Of a DNA stretch of 64,000 nt, positions 1,052 to 59,120 are shown piece after piece (the first letter of the stretch is position 1; each line of letters begins with the position of its first letter). Source of the stretch: Octopus sinensis (taxonomy: Eukaryota); the NCBI RefSeq assembly GCF_006345805.1, contig NC_043016.1, forward strand, positions 3,906,001 to 3,970,000, read 5' to 3'. The notes under the pieces are model-generated. The model saw only the letters and a program-made list of their open reading frames with translations. It had not been told where the DNA came from and did no database searches. The translations under genes and the position numbers were made by a program.

Positions 1052-1760
1052 TGCTGTCAACACCCGTTAAAAGGAGGACTGGGCATGCCGTGGTTGATGA
1101 TGCGCAGACACGCGCTGAGACAGCGACATCTCTGGCTCTATGTAGACGACGGTGAACATGTGTGGTCGCCGTTTGTGAGGCGCGCTTTCCCGCAACTCGT
1201 CTCCATGACCGAACTGCAGTCGTGGATCAAAAAGAGGCCGAGGAAGGGCGAATGGCACCGCGAGTGTCGCGTTGCTCTCAAGCAACTCTGCCGTCCCGGG
1301 TCGACCTTGTGTGATTCCAACACAGCCAAAGCATTCTATAGGTGATTAGTGGAGGGGAGGTACGACGACAATCTTGGGGCGAACCTGGGCGTCGACGAGG
1401 AACACCTGACCCGCCTGTTTGAGACAACTTTCGGGCCAGGGCCCATGGACAACTTCCAGAGATCCCTGGCCTGGCAGTGCTACCGAGAAGCGCTACCCAT
1501 TCGGGATAAGCTCTACAGACACCGCTCGAGAAACACGGGGCCGGCCTGCCCGAGATGCGGTCAGAGCGACGAAACCGTTCTGCACGCACTCGCACAGTGT
1601 CCAACAATTTCCGACCTGTGGGCTTATGTCGAACAACTGCTGTCACGTGTGGGACGAGTCGGTTTATCAGCTGAGTCTATCTTCAATATTGTCACGCCTC
1701 CTTCCTTCAAACGGGAAGGAAGAGCTATTTTCATCATCCCTGTGGCTATGGCACAGGGTA
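1052..1760 (+). mobile_element. Tx1/L1-clade LINE ORF2 3' fragment (zf-RVT zinc knuckle), disrupted
   Basis: GC-rich island; ORFs 1085..1345 and 1349..1933 are in frame across TGA TAG; motif WQCYREALPIRDKL...CPRCGQSDETVLHALAQCP matches the C-terminal CCHC region of L1/Tx1 ORF2. Confidence 0.85.
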
Positions 1761-9792: not shown

Positions 9793-9824
9793 GTTTCTGA
9801 AGAAGCTTTGCTCGAAACGTTAAC
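9793..9824 (+). ncRNA. Minimal type I hammerhead motif (Penelope-type)
   Basis: gttt CTGAAGA agctttgctc GAAA CG TT aac; same family as 51675-51709. Confidence 0.6.
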
Positions 9825-12926: not shown

Positions 12927-12969
<43 letters not shown>

Positions 12970-12971
<2 letters not shown>

Positions 12972-13580
12972 TACGTGGGCACAGGACGTCACGAAACGTG
13001 TACAAACAAAAAAAAAATACGAAGCACGCGAGTGCATGGAACAAGAACTATTTTTCGAACTATGAAAGACAAAAATGGAAAACAAAACAAACAATATAAA
13101 GAACAACCTCTCATCAGTTTTGGGCTGTTTTTCTAGTCTCGTATTTCGAACATTTAACAATAATATACACTTTCGATGAAACAGTTGCTCCTGCAAATTA
13201 AATAAAATTTGGGATTTTGCGGAGGGTCAAAATAGGTAACACAAACAGAACAGTGAAAACAAACAGGATGGACTGCTAAGCCTAAACGAAGTTGTGGTGG
13301 CGAACGCGTAAATCAAGCTAGTACAGGAACACGTCTTCCTTGTTCTAGCTACAATGGAGAGAAAGAAAGATATCCGATGGTTACGTGGGAGCCACGTGAG
13401 CTAGGGAGTAGCAGTGAGAGAGAGAGAGAGAGAGTGACAGAGTGACAGAGTAATAGGATAGAATAGTGTGAGAAGAGGAGGTAAAAGAATATGAGAGAGA
13501 AAAACGAAAGAGCAAAAAGATCGTATAGAGAGCGCATCCGAATTAAAATAAAACTTACTCGGAAGAAGATGCGTCGTGTT
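12970..13580 (-). mobile_element. Non-autonomous repeat carrying the permuted hammerhead (family copy 2)
   Basis: Shares flanks with 58855-59120 and 28685-28930 (caggac...gcatggaac...tcatcag...cctgc...ttaaataaaatt...gagggg). Confidence 0.65.
13107..13184 (-). ncRNA. Degenerate permuted hammerhead ribozyme
   Basis: Minus: CTGTTTC atcgaaag TGTA T A ttattg ttaaa TGTTC GAAA TACG agactag AAAAACAG c ccaaaa CTGATGA GAGG; stem I pairs only 4 of 6. Confidence 0.55.
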
Positions 13581-13723
13581 CAATCATAATAATATAATGT
13601 AATATATACGATATAATATAATATAATATAATACAATACAATATAATATAATATAATATAATATAATATAATATTATAATATATATATAATATAATATAA
13701 TATAATAAATATGATATAATATA

Positions 13724-19662: not shown

Positions 19663-19762
19663 NNNNNNNNNNNNNNNNNNNNNNNNNNNNNNNNNNNNNN
19701 NNNNNNNNNNNNNNNNNNNNNNNNNNNNNNNNNNNNNNNNNNNNNNNNNNNNNNNNNNNNNN
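19663..19762. other. Assembly gap (100 N)
   Basis: Run of n. Confidence 1.
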
Positions 19763-23305: not shown

Positions 23306-25678
23306 CAGTGGTTTCCACCAACTTCTGGCCATACCCCGCCAAATCATATCTAAAGTTCTGATGTACCCTTGTGATATTTAATTTTTGTTATTCAAAATTT
23401 TACTACAATTTACTTGGAGGAAGCTTAAAAGGCTATTAACTTGGTCTCTAAACAAGCTTCCAGAGAACATGGCATTCATGAAAGAGAAAAAATAGAAAAC
23501 GGAAGGACAGTTAAATAAAGTTTCAAAAACATAATGGAGAACTGAAATGCAGAAATATAAATATTTGAATATAAAATAAGTAAACTAAGTTAGTGAGATC
23601 CTTGTGTTTCATGCCTGCTACTGAGAGATTTTATATTAGGCACCAATTTAGTCAGCTTTAGTCTCAAGTCTCCTCCTTTAGTGATATCCAGTCGATTTTT
23701 TCTTCAATAACAAATCATTTACAGCACTAAAGCCACATTCAGCTAAATATGAAGATGGAAAACGGTAGGTACAACAATTTTCTTGCAAAGTTGGTTGAGT
23801 TTGGGTATTTGGTTTCTGTCCTCACAAAAGCCATGACATCACTCTTTTATATGAATAAAGTTTTCACTGACTCATCATTTTCCATTTCCGAGAGTTTTAT
23901 TGGTACTCTATCAGATATATCCACTAGCATTGGCTGCATCACCCATGGTAGAAAATCAATTTGTTTTAAATCCATCAGAAAATCTTTCTTTCAAATCAGA
24001 GGCCAATATTTTCAGATTATCCACATTGACAAGTACACTAATATCGGTCACCTCACGTTTTTTTATCCAATAAAACTGATCGAAAATATTTTTTTGACAT
24101 ACCTCAATCCAGTTAAAACATTCAGTTTTTCAAAGATATCTCTTAAATAACTCACAAATGCTTTACCATCAACGGTTAGCAGACGATTCATTTCAGTCAC
24201 GTCTCTTAAAAAGTCACTAACGAAATCAAATAGTTCCATAAATCTTTTCAAGCAATTCCCCTTTGAGATCCACCTTACCATAGTCTGCTGCTTGAAAAGA
24301 CGCTCTCATTTCGCATTAGCTTTGATAGAATTGATACATTTCATAACTGATTTTAGTACCTCTTTGAGAACAGGGGACATATTTTAGGATACTAAGTTCT
24401 CTCTAAGAATAACACAGCGCACACAGGAAGCATTTCTGGATTCTCATCTTTCATCAATTTTAAGCAGCCTTTTTTCTTGCCCATCATAACAGGAGCACCA
24501 TCTGCAGCACAAGATGTTATGTTCTCTATCGGTATATTGTTGACATCCAAGTAATTTTTTAACTTATCTTATATATATCAGTGGTGGTGGCGGTGGTGGT
24601 GGATTCTAATGATTTGCAGAATATCATTTCTTCAACAAATTCACTTTCATCAATATATTTTACATAGGTTAGCTATACGATTTCCGCTATCTCTTAGAGT
24701 TGATTCATCCATTTGTAACGAGAATTTTCTTGATTTCAGCTTTTAACATGTTGTGTTACAATATCTTCACTCATTTCATCTATTCTTTGACTAACAGTAT
24801 TGTTACTGAGTGGCATGGCTTGAACCACTTTGTCATCTTTTTCCAGGACTGTTTTAAAAAATGCTGATATTGATAGTTTAATTAAATCCTCTCCAATAGT
24901 ATGATTGTTTTCACATTTAGCAATGAATAATGACATTTTATAACTAGCCTCAAGAGTACGACGGGCGTTAACAGATTGTGTAATAAACAGAGACATTATT
25001 GTTGTTCTTTTTGCAAACTTCTCCTTCAAAGACTTAAAGTAATTCAAATCTGAGCTTTCATACGCACTATGTTTCGTCTTCAAATGCAGCTCAAGACGAT
25101 TTGGTTTCATTGATTCGTTGGTCAAGCATTGTTGGCACAAGAGGCAGAAAGGTGACCGTTCATTGTGGATAGTGGGTATAAATCCAAATTTTAAATATTC
25201 CTCTGAATATTGACAAACTTTTTTACTTGCCTGACTCATTTGATAAATCTTTCCAAATACTTGGTTGTATTAATATGGCTCGTCAGTTATTTTTTCAAAT
25301 ATTAAATTAGGACATAAAGGGTTTATATTACAAGTAATTAGAATAAACCTGAAAAATAATTGAATAGTTAAAAATTATTTAAAGAAATATTCAAAACAAA
25401 AAAATTTGAATAAGGAATATAAATGCCAACAAAATGTATACCTCCATACTGTTTATACGCCGTATCTATTAAGACATACATATACGTGTAGAGACTCACT
25501 AGAAACCAATTCACTGTCGAATTGTCGAATTGGCCCCTTTGTTTTTGGTATAGTAAACAGAAGGGTGCTCTTTCATTGTGTACAAGAGGTATAAAAATAA
25601 CATAACCCTACGCATGTCCTCACCAAAATATTACCATGCCCCACCGGTGGAGCAAGCGTCCCATGTTGGGAATCACAA
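23306..25678 (-). mobile_element. hAT (Buster/Charlie) DNA transposon
   Basis: TIR-like ends cagtggtttccaccaac / gttgggaatcacaa; 8-bp TSD cattatgg (23298-23305) / cattatag (25679-25686) with central TA. Confidence 0.9.
23590..25239 (-). pseudogene. Disrupted Buster/SCAND3/ZBED8-like hAT transposase
   Basis: QYSEEYLKFGF...CLLCQQCLTNESMKPNRLELHLKTKH (BED finger), PLSNNTVSQRIDEMSED, VRWISKG, C-terminal GDLRLKLTKLVPNI...GSH*; stops and frameshifts. Confidence 0.9.
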
Positions 25679-28684: not shown

Positions 28685-28930
28685 GGACGTGACGTATCTT
28701 CGACAAGAAAACTTTCCTTCCTGCGAAAAGCAAATCAATTAAAATTCTGAGATCTTTTCGCAGAGGGGTAAAAAATAGTAACAACAGGACAGTAACGACA
28801 AGGCAAATTGTAAACAGTATAAGACAGGACAAGGAAAACAAGATAAGAAGGGCTGTTGACGCGGAACGAAAACAAGTATTGCAAACGCAGAATTTTTATG
28901 GACGACGAGCGGAGGAAAAGAGTTGTCCGT
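28685..28930 (-). mobile_element. Truncated copy 3 of the permuted-hammerhead repeat
   Basis: Shares ccttcctgcgaaa...taaaatt...gcagaggggtaaaaa with 59057-59105; retains only the strand TACG-TC-ACGTCC. Confidence 0.6.
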
Positions 28931-29099
28931 TTAATATTATATATATATATATATAGCTCCATATATATATATTATATATATATATATATATATATGGAGC
29001 TATATATATGTTATATATATATATATATATATATATATAAGAAAATAGTAAAGAGTGAAAAAACGACAGAAGGCTTAAATGTTAAAGAATATATATTTG

Positions 29100-42774: not shown

Positions 42775-45430
42775 ATACTTAAATGATAAATTTATGGAAA
42801 GCATTACGGAATTTACAGTTCCGGTGATGGACTGGACCTGTAGTCTTCGAATCAGCTTTCCGGTTTGAGAAGTCTAATTTCTCAAGATTGGTATTTAGGC
42901 AGTGTGTTACATATCCCAGGACCCCAATAATTACAGGTATAAGCCTGAACTTGTAATCTGGATAGAGTAGCCATAGATTTCTCAATAGTTCAGGGTAGGT
43001 ATTCTCTTTTTCGCTGATCTTTAGCTTTATGTTAACACCCACGGGCAGCTGCTTTTCACAACTGTACAGTTTCTCTTCCTTATCCCAAATTACTATGTCA
43101 GGTCTATTATGTTTACATTTTATTAAGGTTTTCTCTAGGACATTCAACCAGTACTCCTTTTTATCATGAGTGACTATGGCTTTCACTATCCTATAGGTTC
43201 ATATTTCTCTGGCCTCGGTTTTATCCTTTCGATGAATCTCATTATACAGTGTCCTAGCTACAACGTCATGTTTCATTGGTAGATAATACCGTGATGACAT
43301 TTTCGGACAACTGCTTATGATGTAGGTGATATCTTCAGTGTTAATTACACAAAGTTTGCATCGATTATCATATTTTACTGCTTTTCCTGCACCTCTATTC
43401 CTTTTGTGCATCAGGTATTTGGTTGATATTTCTTGTTCTTGGATTACAAACACATATCCTTCAAAGTGGGAGATAGCAATCCGGTTGTTGGTCTATGATA
43501 CACAACTTTGATGATCAATGTTACTATCATCCCGAAGCCTACTACTTCTGCTGATATACGCTCATCCTTTCAGCTGATGATACTTTGCGGAAGAGTTGTG
43601 CGACTTCCCTGTGCATGTATTCTAGGTTATCAAACAAGGAATGTTGCTCAAGGAGCTACCTTCCAAGGCCTATGATGCTATCAGCCTCATGTATCAAACT
43701 TGGTCAAGGGATGCACTTCGACACTTGGTGGTTAAAAGATATTGCCGAAGGGATATGATGCAACATTCAAAGGCAGTCTAAACTGATGTTAAACCTCTGT
43801 TTTCGTTTTAGGTAGAGGCGGTCTACGTCACTGTTGATGTGGAAATTATGTGTGCTTATTAGTATCTTCTGTGTTTTCACATCAATGGCTCGGATTTCAT
43901 CAAGAATCCAATCAAGTAGTCCAAATATTGGTACGAGTATTGGCACTGCAAACACATTGTGGGCGACAGTTTTATTGAACGCAGAGGGTTCCGAGGTCTA
44001 TATTTTCTTTATTCAGTTGTAATATTCTTTAGTGACACGTATTTTGTTACAGGTGCCATTGTAAGTTATGTTTTCACCTACCCCAAGGCACCTGTAACAT
44101 TCTTCGTCAGATAAGGGGGAAACAGACGAATCATTGATGAAGATGTTGTTTGTCTCGTCTACAGCTTCCCCTCTTTTCACAAACGTTTAGCAACATTTAT
44201 CCTGACCAAACTCCAACCTTACATCCTTTGAGAATATTGTAGCGAGGCCAAGGCTCTTTTTCATCTCATGCATATTCTTTGCATATAGTTATCCACAAAG
44301 AAACAATGTGTAATTTTGATATTTCTGTTTCTTTGTGAACCAGTGAGATATCCTTCAAACTTCTTTAACGTGAATGACGTTACAGGGGTTTACGGAAAGT
44401 ACAAGTTACATCACAGAGAGGCTGTCCCCTTGGAATATACCTCTGCGATACTGTTCTATCAGTAATAAAATAAGTCACTTCTTGTATATAACTTCAAAAT
44501 GGTGACACACGATGGAGTCAAGTCAGCTATAGCTTTGACTATGCTTACTGAAACTTTAGCAAGTCGAAAGGCTTCTAGCATCCATAAGTGGAGGATAGCG
44601 GCAAAGGCTTTTTTGTAGTCTAGCCACATAGAAATGGGGTTCCTGCTATACTCCCGCACCTCAAACAATACAGTTTTGTTTAACAGTTGCTCGGCACATC
44701 TCCAGACTCCCTTCTTGCCAGATGTTTGTTCTGCTGTGATGATGTTACTGGTTTTACAATGGTCTTGAAGGAAAAGGTTTAAGCATGCTGTATATATCTT
44801 ATACATTACGTTCTGGCATGCAATTGGCCGAGTATTTCTTGCCATGTGGGTGGTTCTGCATTTGGAGATCAGTTTTGTCTCTGTTAGAGCTAACCAGTGT
44901 GGTATGCTACTGTTCCCATTGAGAACTTGATGGTACATGTTGATAAGATATGGTCGGTAGAAGTTTAGCTTCTTGTGCCAGTATCCAACAATCAAGTCTC
45001 TTCCAGGTGCTTTTCCATCCTGAAATTTCTGGATTACAATCACAAGGATATTACCATCAATGCTGCATTTCTTGAGTATAATGTAGGAACAATAACTTCT
45101 TCGAATTTCATCCAGTCACACAGCATCTTGGTTTAACGCCTTCTCTTCGTTCCAGATTTTCCTTCAGAAGGAATCTATTTCTTCTCGTGAAGGAGCTTCT
45201 GTGATGTTCACTGCTTCTCCTCCCATGTCTCTGTACATTGCTGCCTGGTCCCGGTTAAATTTCTTATTCATTGTTTTTCTCTCGGTTATTCTCTTCTGGT
45301 GTCTGAGTTTCTCACTGACAGCTTTTATCTCCTGTTTAAGGTTAATCAGTTTATAAGTGAGTGTCCTCTTTTTGATATCTCCAAGTTTCTATCGCCTTCT
45401 TCACGTTTTGTTGGGTAGGCGTATAATGAT
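42775..45430 (-). mobile_element. R4/Dong-type non-LTR retrotransposon (RT, CCHC, restriction-like endonuclease), decayed
   Basis: GKAPGRD, RPIACQN, WLDYKKAF, RGIFQGDSLS, CKLC...EDITYIISSC...KHD, RPDIVIWDK, PVIIGVLG in successive broken ORFs. Confidence 0.9.
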
Positions 45431-45599: not shown

Positions 45600-47630
45600 G
45601 AAAAAATGAAATTAAAGAAAGAATATACACAGAATGTATATATATTTTAAACCCAGTTCCAAAAGAGCCCAAATAGCAAAGACACCTAAAGGAGAAACTA
45701 GTGCTAAGGAAAAGGAAAATAGAGATTAGATGGTTTATAAGAGCATTAAAAATATACCGGGAAATAAATTTAACCCTCAACGAAAAAACTCAAAAGACGT
45801 AATTACAATCAATATGTTCGGAGAGGAAAACCAGCCTTCTAACAATTCAAATGTCATTAGTAACACTGACACTTTACATCAACGTATTTACAACAAACTT
45901 TTTCTAGACCCAGTTCAGAGAAACAGGGACACATGGAACAAAACATACAGGAAAAACCCAAAGTAATAAACTTATCAAAGAAAACTTTCTCAACAACAAA
46001 AATCAACATATAAGTTAAAAGACTAAAATTTACCCCAACCCTACGCAGATCTAATCAGAATGAAATCAAAGAAAATATTGCGGAATTTTGCTGAAAATTG
46101 CGACTTACAACATGAGAATGAATCACTGGTCAAATACAAAAAGAATTATCTTGCACGTAAAGGTAAGACTAAAATAATCGATGGCTTTTCTGGCCATATC
46201 CTGAATTTCACGAATAATACTTTACACAAGCAAAAATCAACTCACACTATCAACTCAGCAATATCGAATGGAAAATTTTCTTTGAACAGCAAAACGATAA
46301 AGAGTTGACAATCAAAGAAGCCGACAAAAGAAGTGCTGGAGTTCTGATGGACACTAAAAACAAATAATGTCCATGCTAGAAGATGATACCTCCCATGAAA
46401 AGGCTAAAAAAGCATAAACAATAAAAAATAAGGAAAAATCTTGCTTCCTTAATTCACCGACATGGAAAGGATCTAACAAAACAATTATATCACAAAGTTT
46501 GAATGTAAACCTAATCTTTTCAATGGTTTACCTAAAATCTACAAGTGCCAGATAATTAAAGAAACCTGCAAACAATCAGCAAGCATTTATGTTAATAACC
46601 AAGCGCCACACGATTTGAAACTAAAACCCATTATAGTGGGCCGAGCGTGTGAAGGTTACTGCTTAAGCAATTGTCTCGATATCTTTCTGAAACCCTTTTT
46701 GAAATATATCAAAAGCTTCAGTAGAGATGTTCTAGATATGTTAAACCGCCTACCAAAAACAACGAATGAAGAGGCAACCTTGGTTTCTTTTGATGTTGTG
46801 AATCTGCACGCTAATATCCCACAATACTATGGAATAGAAGCAGTTAAATTATGGCTTGAAAACTATCCAGGAGAACTTCCATAGTGCGTGAATCAGGAGT
46901 TGATAATGGGAGCTTTAAAATTACTTTTTATTCGACACTAACAACTTATTTGATACTTTTGGTAAGAGTGGAATTGCAATGGGAACCTAATAGTAATATT
47001 TTTAGAATTAACTATATATCAAGTATTACTACAGAAATATGGATGCTCGTTATACCAACTGGAAAAGATATCTGGATGATTGTTTATCGTTTTGAAAGGG
47101 AATATTGATAAAGTTTTTGAATTTAAATCACTGTTCAACGGTATAAATCAAAATTTTAAATTTTTAAATGGAGTGCAGCAAAGAGCAAATCCTATTCGTT
47201 GATATATTAATAAAAAAAATATAAAATTAAAACCGATATCTTTTATATGCCCACATACACGAATCAATACCGTTTGTTTAACTCATGCAACGTGTAAGAC
47301 ATTAAAATAAATATTCCTTTTAATTTAGCGAAAAGGATTTGCACAATTGTGTCTGCTGGGACCTTCGACTTCAAGACCATAAAACCGCACCAGTTGAGAG
47401 ACACTATCCACCCTCACTAATAGATAAAGGGATTAAACGTGCGGAGAAAAAAATATATCAAAATAGTAAGGGAAACAAAAGGAAATTACACGCCCCAAAT
47501 ACTATTCTATATTTTGAAACACAACTCTAGAAACAATGAGGCACCATTATTCAAAATTTACTTATGCTCATTAAGGACTCTAAGATGAATTCTAGAAGCA
47601 CACAAATTCACAAAAAACAAAGAGATTAAA
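45600..47630 (+). mobile_element. Second Penelope-like element, heavily decayed
   Basis: LKFTPT, IKEADK, GLPKIYK, SFDVVNLHANIP, RYLDD, NIPFNLAKRICTIV; homologous to the 29100-30975 copy. Confidence 0.88.
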
Positions 47631-55040: not shown

Positions 55041-55214
55041 ATAATATTAGGAATATATCCAAATTTACAGGGAAAAAAAATCAGATTTAGGATTAAATCC
55101 AATTTTATAGTAAAATATTATAAAATATTATTTGAGACAAAACCACTATTTTGCAAAACAAACAAGGAAAGACTTAATCAATACATAAAATTTAATAAAT
55201 AGTCAAAAAAACCG

Positions 55215-55257
55215 CCACTACAATCGTTTCTTGTCTTGATCGACAATCTTCAGGTGG
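55215..55257 (-). ncRNA. Type I hammerhead ribozyme (left arm of the inverted repeat)
   Basis: Exact reverse complement of 58508-58550. Confidence 0.8.
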
Positions 55258-58200
55258 ACTTCCAATCTAAAAAATCAAATTTTAAAATATAAAAATAATA
55301 CTTTTAAATAATTAAAGTATAAATGAAAAATATAAGTATATAATCCATATATAACCTATATATAATCCATATCGAAAATATAGACTAATTACCACGAATT
55401 CCCTAAAAAAACCATGATAAACAAAACCTCTAAAACATATAACGATAAAATCTCCTTTTGCTAAACTCTATAACAAACCTATAAAGTAAACCCCCTAACC
55501 TAACATTCACACACAAATACACACACGTAAACCACAGACTCACGACTTATACACTACCTATACTAACTTATAAACCTCAATATACACCAAAACCCACTCC
55601 CTCCCACACAGACAAATTAAACATACATCCCAAAACCTAATAACAAACCCATATACACATTCACACACAAAACACACACTCACACGCAAAACACTCACAC
55701 ACAAAAGATACATATACTCCCTCACATATACGCCTATACATACTCACTAAACTCGACATATACAACAATACTTACACACCCACAAAAAACATTATATACA
55801 TTTATGAGCTTAACTCACCTTAGCATCTCTAACAAACAACTTGCAGTAACCCAATCCCATTCTCTATGCCTACCTCACTACTACACTATTCCATTCACAT
55901 TCCAAGCAACGCTAGTCCACCACCCGGTTATTCACGTGGCAAAACGAACACCACTCAAAATTATGAATGAAACAATGTAAAAAAATAACCAACACCTAAA
56001 ATAGACAAAATACCACAAATTACCTAAAAAAACCATGATAAACCAAAACTCATAAAAGCATATAACGATAAAATCTCCCTTTGCTAAACCCTATAACAAA
56101 CTTATATAGCAATCCCCCTAACCTAAACATTCACACACAAAAACCCACACGTAAACCACAGACCCAAGACTTATACACAAACCTATACTAACTTATAAAC
56201 CTCAATATACACCAAAAACCACTCCTCCCCACACAGACAAAATAACACATACACCCAAATCCTAAATAACAACCCAAATACACATTCACACACAAACACA
56301 CACCACACAAAACACACATACAAACAACAGATACATATGCTCCCTCACATATACGCATATACATACTCACTAAAACTCGATATATACAACAATATTTACA
56401 CCCACACTCATACAGATAAATAAATTAATTATACAATTAAAAACTCACAACCAATCTCATATACATAACACTCTTATGAAAACAACAATAAATACATCGT
56501 AATTAACCAGAATATCAAAAATAACATTATGACATAAGGATAAATCAAATACTACTTACAATTCAGTTACAATTATGAAGTGAAATTAGATTTTTAGCCG
56601 TTAAAAAACCAAACAAAATTACGTTACCATGGAAATAACTAATGTAAAAAAAGAATACGCGCCATAGAAAGTAAACGTCATTCATAGTATGAATGGAGAA
56701 ATATAATAAATGGAACTAAAAACTATTTCCACGTAGCAAACCAACGCTACTTAAAAAATTTATTATGAATGGATTCTTTAAAAACTATCATGAAAAATCA
56801 ATTATATACATTTATGAGCTTTAGCTCACCCTAGCAACTCTAACAAACAACTTACAGTAACCCATACTCAATACCTACCTCATTACCACCCTAATCCATT
56901 CACAAACCCATACTCAATACCTACCTCATTACCACCCTAATCCATTCACAATTCCAATGATTTTTCATGATAGTTTTTAAAGAATCCATTCATAATAAAT
57001 TTTTTTAAGTAGCGTTGGTTTGCTACGTGGAAATAGTTTTTAGTTCCATTTATTATATTTCTCCATTCATACTATGAATGACGTTTACTTTCTATGGCGC
57101 GTATTCTTTTTTTACATTAGTTATTTCCATGGTAACGTAATTTTGTTTGGTTTTTTAACGGCTAAAAATCTAATTTCACTTCATAATTTGTAACTGAATT
57201 GTAAGTATGTATTTGATTTATCCTTATGTCATAATGTTATTTTTGATATTCTGGTTAATTACGATGTATTTATTGTTGTTTTCATAAGAGTGTTTATGTA
57301 TATGAGATTGGTTGTGAGTTTTAATTGTATAATTAATTTATTTATCTGTATGAGTGTGGGTGTAAATATTGTTGTATATATCGAGTTTTAGTGAGTATGT
57401 ATATGCGTATATGTGAGGGAGCATATGTATCTGTTGTGTATGTGTGTTTTTGTGTGTGTGTGTGTTTGTGTGTGAATGTGTATTTGGGTTTTATTTAGGA
57501 TTTGGGATGTATGTGTTAATTTGTCTGTGTGGGGAGGGAGTGGTTTTTGGTGTATATTGAGGTTTATAAGTTAGTATAGTTTGTGTATAAGTCTTGGGTC
57601 TGTGGTTTACGTGTGGGTTTTTTGTGTGAAATGTTTAGGTTAGGGGATTGCTATATAAGTTTGTTATAGGGTTTAGCAAAGGGAGATTTTATCGTTATAT
57701 GCTTTTGAGTTTTGGTTTATCATGGTTTTTTTAGGTAATTTGTGGTATTTTGTCTATTTTAGGTGTTGGTTATTTTTTACATTGTTTCATTCATAATTTT
57801 TGAGTGGTGTTCGTTTTGCCACGTGAATAACCGGGTGGTGGACTAGCGTTGCTTGGAATGTGAATGGAATAGTGTAGTAGTGAGGTAGGCATAGAGAATG
57901 GGATTGGGTTACTGCAAGTTGTTTGTTAGAGATGCTAAGGTGAGTTAAAGCTCATAAATGTATATAATGTTTTTTGTGGTGGTGTAAGTATTGTTGTATA
58001 TGTCGAGTTTAGTGAGTATGTATAGGCGTATATGTGAGGGATATATGTATCTTTGTGTGTGAGTGTTTTGCGTGTGAGTGTGTTTTTGGTGTTTGAATGT
58101 GTATATGGGTTTGTTATTTAGGTTTTGGGATGTATGTGTTAATTTGTCTGTGTGGGGAGGGAGTGGGTTTTGGTGTATATTGAGGTTTATAAGTTAGTAT

Positions 58201-58507
58201 AGGTATGTGTATAAGTCGTGAGTCTGTGGTTTACGTGTGTGTATTTGTGTGTGAATGTTTAGGTTAGGGGGTTTACTTTATAGGTTTGTTATAGAGTTTT
58301 AGCAAGGGAGATTTTATCGTTATATGTTTTTAAGAGTTTTGTTTTATCATGGTTTTTTTAGGGAATTCGTGGTAATTAGTCTATATTTCGATATGGATTA
58401 TATATAGGTTATATATGGATTATATACTTATATTTTTTCATTTATACTTTAATTATTTAAAAGTATTATTTTTATATTTTAAAATTTTGATTTTTTAGAT
58501 TGGAAGT

Positions 58508-58550
58508 CCACCTGAAGATTGTCGATCAAGACAAGAAACGATTGTAGTGG
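58508..58550 (+). ncRNA. Type I hammerhead ribozyme (right arm of the inverted repeat)
   Basis: CCAC CTGAAGA TTGTC gatcaa GACAA GAAA CGATTG TA GTGG; GUA site. Confidence 0.8.
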
Positions 58551-58641
58551 CGGTTTTTTTGACTATTTATTAAATTTTATGTATTGATTAAGTCTTTCCT
58601 TGTTTGTTTTGCAAATAGTGGTTTTGTCTCAAATAATATTT

Positions 58642-58854: not shown

Positions 58855-59120
58855 AGTGGTGTACAGGACACCACAATAGACGTAGAACTCAACGAGAAAC
58901 GAAAAAGTAAAAATAGCATGGAACGGACCATTTTTTTAACAACGAAAAAACAGAGTACAAGACAACTACACAAGGAAAATCCCCTTCATCAGCTGTCCCT
59001 AGTTCAACTCCAGCATGTTTCGAAGGTGAGGACAGAACATGTCTCGTCGAACTAGTCCTTCCTGCGAAAGAATTAAATAAAATTCCTTTGCAGAGGGGTA
59101 AAAACAAGGAAAAAAAATGT
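58855..59120 (-). mobile_element. Non-autonomous repeat carrying the permuted hammerhead (best copy)
   Basis: Homologous flanks to 12970-13230 and 28685-28780; bounded by (TA)n. Confidence 0.65.
58981..59055 (-). ncRNA. Putative non-circularly permuted (pseudoknotted) hammerhead ribozyme
   Basis: Minus: CTAGTTCGAC gaga CATG T T CTGTCC tca CCTTC GAAA CATG ctgga GTTGAACTAG GGACAG CTGATGA AGGGG; complete core and all three stems in register. Confidence 0.7.

Follow-up and report, generated by a model that had tools for sequence, protein, structure and literature searches.

We analysed a 64,000-nucleotide (nt) window of the Octopus sinensis genome (contig NC_043016.1; all positions are those within this stretch), in which a folded RNA motif is encoded near 13 kb on the minus strand. 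The motif occupies ~13104-13229 of a dispersed repeat and extends beyond the coordinates given by an earlier sequence-only reading, whose 78 quoted letters exactly matched 13184 to 13107 of the minus strand. It is likely a decayed copy of a hammerhead-fold RNA that a TA-targeting retroelement of high copy number carries close to its 3' end; this element is most likely a Naiad-type Penelope-like element (PLE) or its non-autonomous partner. Three copies of the repeat, all flanked by TA-rich repeats, were found in the window (helices are named below):

12975..13620, minus strand: repeat insertion of ~640 nt, bordered by the flanking TA-rich microsatellites
28690..28940, minus strand: third copy, with the Pa 5' strand, Pb and the stem II 10.x strand (28769-28716) kept and the rest of the ribozyme missing
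58981..59098, minus strand: intact copy of a second subfamily, with all six helices fully Watson-Crick paired and GUU at the site

The 13 kb insertion probably represents the 5'-truncated 3' end of a Naiad-type PLE or of a non-autonomous partner. The 59 kb copy forms an insertion of ~265 nt between TA repeats, and its segment 59055-58982 corresponds to the one quoted by the sequence-only reading. Both copies were homologous over ~260 nt including the flanks (nhmmer E values 8.2e-6 and 4.7e-7, the composition bias being high). At 80% likeness, 3,593, 3,450 and 3,192 contigs from three public DNA runs (three species labels) aligned to 12965-13620, which demonstrates many copies without giving a copy number; the contigs spanned 12965 to ~13600, thinning toward the 5' end. 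From RNA run X23, 326 reads aligned to 12965-13620, both strands alike, and 85% of them continued into unlike sequence. The (TA)n insertion, 5' truncation and high copy number of the window family are traits common to other PLE clades as well. The copies are dispersed, solitary and non-circularly wired, and show neither the short-unit tandem repeats nor the type I hammerhead of non-LTR (long terminal repeat) retrozymes.

Helix-by-helix layout of the motif

Hammerhead numbering and chemistry follow the usual conventions. In the 13 kb copy the following parts were assigned, from the 5' to the 3' end of the RNA; "family letters" are the majority letters of the aligned copies:

13223..13229, minus strand: 5' strand of helix Pa (UGACCCU), which pairs with the bases directly after CUGAUGA and closes the entire motif
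13191..13222, minus strand: hairpin Pb, in a direct stack between Pa and G10.1 that leaves no base unused
13186..13190, minus strand: 10.x strand of stem II (GAGCA; G10.1 is 13190), far upstream of CUGAUGA
13178..13184, minus strand: 5' strand of helix P0, with 6 of 7 pairs, or 7 of 7 with the family letter at 13178
13164..13169, minus strand: 16.x strand of stem III with U16.1 (13165) and H17 (A, 13164), assigned by sequence and pairing
13158..13163, minus strand: 1.x strand of stem I, with 4 of 6 pairs, or 6 of 6 Watson-Crick pairs with family letters
13140..13152, minus strand: Block G, comprising stem II 11.x (13152-13148), GAAA (13147-13144) and stem III 15.x (13143-13140)
13125..13131, minus strand: 3' strand of P0, assigned by pairing
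13111..13123, minus strand: 2.x strand of stem I (13123-13118) and core CUGAUGA (13117-13111), assigned by sequence and pairing
13104..13110, minus strand: 3' strand of Pa, beginning directly after A9

The order along the chain is thus Pa, Pb, stem II (10.x), P0, stem III, UH, stem I, stem II (11.x), GAAA, stem III, P0, stem I, CUGAUGA and Pa. All elements of the hammerhead core, CUGAnGA, GAAA, UH and G10.1-C11.1, were present in both the 13 kb and the 59 kb copies. Stems I, II and III adjoin this core and are wholly Watson-Crick at 59 kb. The 10.x strand of stem II lies ~70 nt upstream of CUGAUGA, and the core is followed by Pa. GAGCA pairs at all five positions with 13152-13148, exclusively by Watson-Crick pairs when the family letter at 13150 is taken; the stem reads GAAGG/CCUUC at 59 kb, where three of the five pairs are altered on both sides relative to 13 kb. 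Pa forms 6 of 7 pairs at 13 kb (three of them G-U), 7 of 7 with family letters and 5 of 5 Watson-Crick pairs at 59 kb, where it is present in the minimum-free-energy fold. Pb has 6 of 7 pairs at 13 kb, eight Watson-Crick pairs at 59 kb and 10 bp arms at 28763/28730. The connectivity of P0 is that of the CSG-1 interaction helix, and the counterpart of P0 in hammerhead types SGC and CSG is the helix through which stems I and II interact. Modelled in this way, the RNA would, with high confidence, contain a gap-free four-way junction of stem II, core, Pa and Pb inserted between A9 and G10.1. By analogy with known hammerheads, the predicted cut falls between 13164 and 13163, and between 59036 and 59035 in the intact 59 kb copy.

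The sequence-only reading had described a diverged second copy with an unusual block order, and most of its pairings were recovered: stem III as UGUA(U)/(A)UACG, the extra helix CUGUUU/AAACAG with 6 bp, stem I with only 4 of 6 pairs, and a similar spacing of CUGAUGA and GAAA (26 nt apart at 13 kb, 25 nt at 59 kb). The stem II that it implied, UGUUC with the GAGG after CUGAUGA, did not hold, giving +0.8 kcal/mol versus -3.0 for the upstream partner GAGCA. Two of the four GAGG bases are not the family majority, and related families lack the G there. The true upstream partner of stem II and two more helices had been overlooked. As for the S-G-C order, it was already published in 2023 (PMC10085705).

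A canonical hammerhead arrangement downstream of CUGAUGA was also considered and rejected: a hairpin follows, but without GAAA.

Family letters, covariation and controls

A subfamily consensus had been proposed beforehand as the check on whether stem I regains its pairing. The family-majority letters gave UUGUUG/CAACAA, with 6 of 6 Watson-Crick pairs, and the 13 kb copy thus stands as a diverged, probably decayed member of its subfamily. At the broken positions of stem I the alternative letter made up 91, 93 and 93% of the depth in the three DNA runs at 13161, 98, 99 and 97% at 13122, and 99, 98 and 99% at 13120; in the RNA reads it was seen in 19 of 21, 65 of 71 and 70 of 71, respectively. 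The family letter at 13178 accounted for 91, 85 and 97% of the depth. Every helix was mended by family letters (stem I 6/6, P0 7/7, stem II 5/5, stem III 4/4, Pa 7/7), which are unphased, were drawn from the variants listed and do not imply invariance of the core and H17. After CUGAUGA the family reads AGGG versus GAGG at 13 kb (13110: 91-94%; 13109: 72-88%).

Duplex energies were calculated for the 13 kb copy, the family letters and the 59 kb copy, in this order. The upstream stem II duplex reached -3.0, -5.4 and -4.6 kcal/mol, the downstream one +0.8, -2.2 and -3.1 kcal/mol, and Pa -4.0, -10.2 and -8.5 kcal/mol. Among 31 registered pairs, 18 were identical between the family letters and the 59 kb copy, 12 differed on both sides, none on one side and one was broken, in line with the compensatory helix changes between subfamilies claimed by the sequence-only reading; with the genomic 13 kb copy the figures were 14, 9, 3 and 5, and all these counts, being registered by structure, are biased toward it. 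Folded without constraints, the 59 kb copy formed Pa, Pb, P0 and stem III (z -2.94). The 13 kb copy did not fold as drawn and did no better than shuffles (z -0.77), as expected from its decay. With only two stem I pairs next to the core it probably cuts poorly or not at all, and we regard it as quite probably inactive.

A strict S-G-C descriptor matched only the 59 kb copy in the window and nothing in 2,681 shuffled windows; when two stem I mismatches were allowed, it matched both copies, at no other place in the window, and one of the 2,681 shuffled windows. With the full-layout descriptor the two copies scored 30 and 25 as the sole matches in the window, and 3,788 shuffles yielded four matches, the best scoring 23; both descriptors were shaped after the motif had been seen, so the shuffle rates are optimistic. 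None of 112 viral loci, collected with the generic core pattern in viral contigs, fitted the full layout. Rfam gave no match in the window at the gathering score, and its type I, II and III hammerhead models did not fit the non-circular block order.

A related metagenome family, Naiad elements and the neighbourhood

The generic core pattern was found at 120 or more metagenome loci, and the counts that follow are among the loci listed. Eighteen of the 120 belong to one related family (assemblies ERZ1740055 and Ga0126343), in which 11 loci matched the full descriptor, three matched it in part and four were not scored. The other 102 lie outside the family; two of them, L178 and L231, with scores of 20 and 23 that fall in the range of the shuffles, were set aside. 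Fourteen of the 18 copies were aligned, leaving out L136, L203 and L217, which are cut short, and L183, which has an insertion. On these 14 copies, 91.3% of 663 cells of the six-helix structure paired versus 27-47% for slid partners, and both-side changes occurred in 17 cells, in Pa, P0 and stem I, a number that none of 500 shuffles reached. The family reads ACAG after the core, with no G10.1 there, and therefore the plain SGC form cannot arise in it. A C-terminal end of a reverse transcriptase (RT) was found upstream on the same strand in three of the 18 loci (L154, L177 and L190); the match in L136 is downstream. P0150 (953 aa), a full-length relative of this upstream RT end, shows GIY-YIG at its N-terminus (E 7e-4, which misses the Pfam cut-off), CxC and DKA. 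N-terminal GIY-YIG, CxC and DKA are described as Naiad diagnostics (PMC8557442). The octopus-family pattern gave no match in the metagenomes.

Naiads were reported without canonical hammerheads, bearing only 'HHR_core' or 'half_core' flags; for eight elements flagged as half core, Naiad_Ovul and Naiad_Esco among them, the other half was placed 'on either side' at 35-50 nt (PMC8557442). The published Naiad consensus file was read by eye around the core words, covering places 1-51 of 62 for CTGATGA, 1-19 of 23 for CTGACGA, 1-19 of 25 for CTGAGGA and 1-19 of 43 for CTGAAGA; words split by line ends are missed by this procedure. Among the matches listed, the order seen in the window, with an upstream stem II, occurred at the 3' ends of ~11 of 54 Naiads. 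The upstream stem II reads GACACC/GGUGUC in Naiad_Obim and Naiad_Ovul and GGCUCC/GGAGCC in three Acropora Naiads. A Beroe Naiad follows the same order with a 2-bp stem I and Pa outside the view; also counted were one hydrozoan, two further and one arthropod Naiad, these four identified solely by their order in the file, and the degenerate end of a Euprymna Naiad. Six nematode Naiad ends appeared to be plain CSG forms, with a stem II of 4-5 bp and a stem III of up to 11 bp. The window layout was not seen in the bivalve Naiad passages of the file read by eye. Several arthropod Naiad ends show CCCCCUGAnGA with other pairings, one being possibly SGC-like with long inserts.

Other mobile-element traces lie in the same window. 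The minus-strand open reading frame (ORF) 31039-29344 is a broken Penelope-like one that encodes an RT and, after it, a GIY-YIG-like end bearing a CxxxxCxxC motif, and we take it to be Neptune-like; 29200-29175 holds the type I hammerhead remnant of this element, with C3 reading U. A second degenerate Penelope-like RT lies at 45888-47354 (plus strand). Among named sequences, the best relatives of one RT in the window belong to Octopus bimaculoides and O. sinensis. At 9797 (plus) and 51705 (minus) lie two homologous motifs that resemble minimal type I hammerheads (CUGAnGA-A, hairpin, GAAACGUU); they share a mutual E value of 2e-10 and are typical of PLE pseudo-LTRs. The segment 22196-22295 forms a near-perfect hairpin with arms of ~47 bp and -85 kcal/mol, similar to miniature inverted-repeat transposable elements, and 55150-58615 carries nested long inverted repeats (arms of 138-233 nt, 89-100%), a complex inverted insertion. 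A mobile-element fragment with a zf-RVT match was noted at 1346-1760 (plus). Three minus-strand segments, 24736-25269, 44459-45115 and 42779-43198, look transposase- or RT-like by eye and have no Pfam match. An assembly gap of 100 N occupies 19663-19762.

Interpretation and comparison with known hammerheads

The window form is a topological hammerhead variant with the non-circular wiring of the SGC/CSG/GCS group, CSG-like and opened at A9-G10.1, and it is probably a Naiad ribozyme. Self-cleavage by intact family members is quite probable. Such copies would cut after H17 by ordinary hammerhead chemistry, the chain leaving the core at A9 into Pa and returning via Pb to G10.1. In tandem pseudo-LTR transcripts two cuts could release unit-length RNA, which would extend an earlier model (PMC4209133), and the ends of this RNA may stay paired via Pa, stem II, P0 and stem III, favouring re-ligation or end capture by RT.

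A number of observations weigh against this interpretation. RNA ends did not accumulate at the predicted cut site among the 326 reads, which are standard RNA-seq derived from other copies, with strands alike, and are uninformative on cleavage. The pair counts between subfamilies carry the structural bias given above and the family letters are unphased; at 13169 the alternative letter took only 44, 60 and 49% of the depth, and both letters pair. In the metagenome family the both-side changes come from only 3 of 48 pairs, and 470 of 500 shuffles reach three. A covariance model of that family (R1) had neither window copy among its 24 matches at E<=10, and the link between the two is therefore architectural. 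A Naiad-like protein search found no Naiad ORF remnant beside the window copies, the best non-Neptune match being 39044-38958 (E 0.011), and the copies share no evident common primary sequence with Naiad_Obim. In the published scheme the hammerhead is split into three blocks, with CUGAnGA assumed to be joined to both its stems and block C uninterrupted (PMC10085705). Finally, the hammerhead of an Anolis PLE cut only with protein and was dispensable for insertion in vitro (PMC11167929).

The fold may be real and selected without cutting itself, serving the RT-endonuclease as a binding or end-pairing signal that derives from a hammerhead, or cutting only with protein. The Anolis case, the missing pile-up of RNA ends, the GUU site of the 59 kb copy and a possible distortion of the core by a helix at A9/G10.1 would agree with that; yet CUGAnGA, GAAA, UH and G10.1-C11.1 were kept across families with all helices different, as selection on catalysis predicts, and we consider a non-cutting fold unlikely. 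It is less probable still that the motif is a plain SGC form whose stem II uses the bases after CUGAUGA with one extra base. The 59 kb copy does fit the SGC descriptor in this way, and the family letters permit four pairs (two G-U), perhaps as a minor alternative fold, but the duplex is weaker than the upstream one and competes with Pa, the upstream partner covaries between subfamilies, and the metagenome family has ACAG in place of G10.1. Very improbable, in our view, is splicing or back-splicing that joins the core to G10.1 and makes the active form an ordinary CSG-like ribozyme. An acceptor-like GCAG directly precedes G10.1 in all three window copies, and the Penelope intron ends at its hammerhead (PMC4209133). 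Against this, the acceptor-like letters are accounted for by Pb, no AG stands at that place in the metagenome family or in Naiad_Obim, the loose-end consensus (55-69 contigs per DNA run) reads GG, not AG, and no core-G10.1 joint was among the RNA-run joints listed.

Another doubt concerns the carrier alone: the window repeats could be the ends of an RT-then-endonuclease, Neptune-like element. On the strand of the 28 kb copy, an ORF of this kind (31039-29344) is found 400-650 nt upstream of it, but a TA tract separates the two, a type I hammerhead remnant already belongs to the ORF element and all other carriers observed were Naiads. A link between that copy and the adjacent ORF is unlikely, as is a Neptune-like carrier in general; a Naiad is the likely carrier, this link resting on architecture and not on sequence. 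The poor fold of the 13 kb copy taken by itself and the absence of an Rfam match in the window would suit short motifs that came together by chance in AT-rich DNA. Chance is refuted for practical purposes because the family letters mend the helices, and the shuffle controls and the recurrence in unrelated families also oppose it.

Altogether, we lean towards the view that active non-circular hammerheads overlooked by descriptor searches occur in the Naiads of ctenophores, cnidarians, arthropods, nematodes and cephalopods, with the CSG form in nematodes and the four-way form elsewhere. If so, such ribozymes would for the first time be placed in animal genomes, in very many copies and with cleavage products held paired for circularisation, and non-circular hammerheads would move there from anonymous metatranscriptome contigs. 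The window form would break the published rule of an uninterruptible CUGAnGA block, and hammerhead wirings would exceed six. It might also answer why Naiads seem to be without the ribozyme of other PLEs, and the argument that PLE ribozymes are mere passengers would lose part of its force. CSG and four-way forms within one element clade would offer a natural series for the interconversion of wirings.

In the literature searched, most subscription journals lying outside it, no report was found of non-circular hammerheads in Naiads or cephalopods or of a helix at A9-G10.1, and the available parts of PMC3088659, PMC10162972 and PMC13725137 describe no helix inserted at A9/G10.1. According to PMC10085705, the CSG and SGC forms cut in vitro; SGC is known only from metatranscriptomes, two unique CSG sequences come from soil DNA, and neither type was placed in the genome of a known organism. 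The published SGC/CSG patterns need a G directly, or after one U, behind CUGAUGA (PMC10085705) and therefore would miss the window form. Type SGC (HRIMA-1 and its variant) shares with the window form the order of site, GAAA and CUGAnGA, pseudoknotted stems, a short stem I-stem II linker and an interaction helix beside stem I; its 10.x strand follows CUGAnGA after 0-1 nt, whereas that of the window form lies ~70 nt upstream, so that block C is broken (PMC10085705). With type CSG the window form has in common the cyclic connectivity and P0 between the segments before stem I 2.x and after stem II 10.x (PMC10085705). It differs in that CSG begins with an unbroken CUGAnGA block, while in the window CUGAUGA comes last, detached from 10.x, and two helices are added. 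The minimal type I hammerheads of PLE pseudo-LTRs likewise lie near the 3' end of a PLE-type repeat, occur in dispersed truncated copies and carry one base between positions 9 and 10.1, the insertion point of the window form (PMC4209133). They are circular, have a tiny palindromic stem III and are proposed to act as dimers (PMC4209133), in contrast to the window form with its full stem III and six helices, which could act as a monomer. The window copies are unlike Naiads in having no adjoining Naiad ORF, and resemble them in inserting at TA repeats, in being 5'-truncated and in an RNA layout placed ~90-135 nt before the 3' end (PMC8557442).
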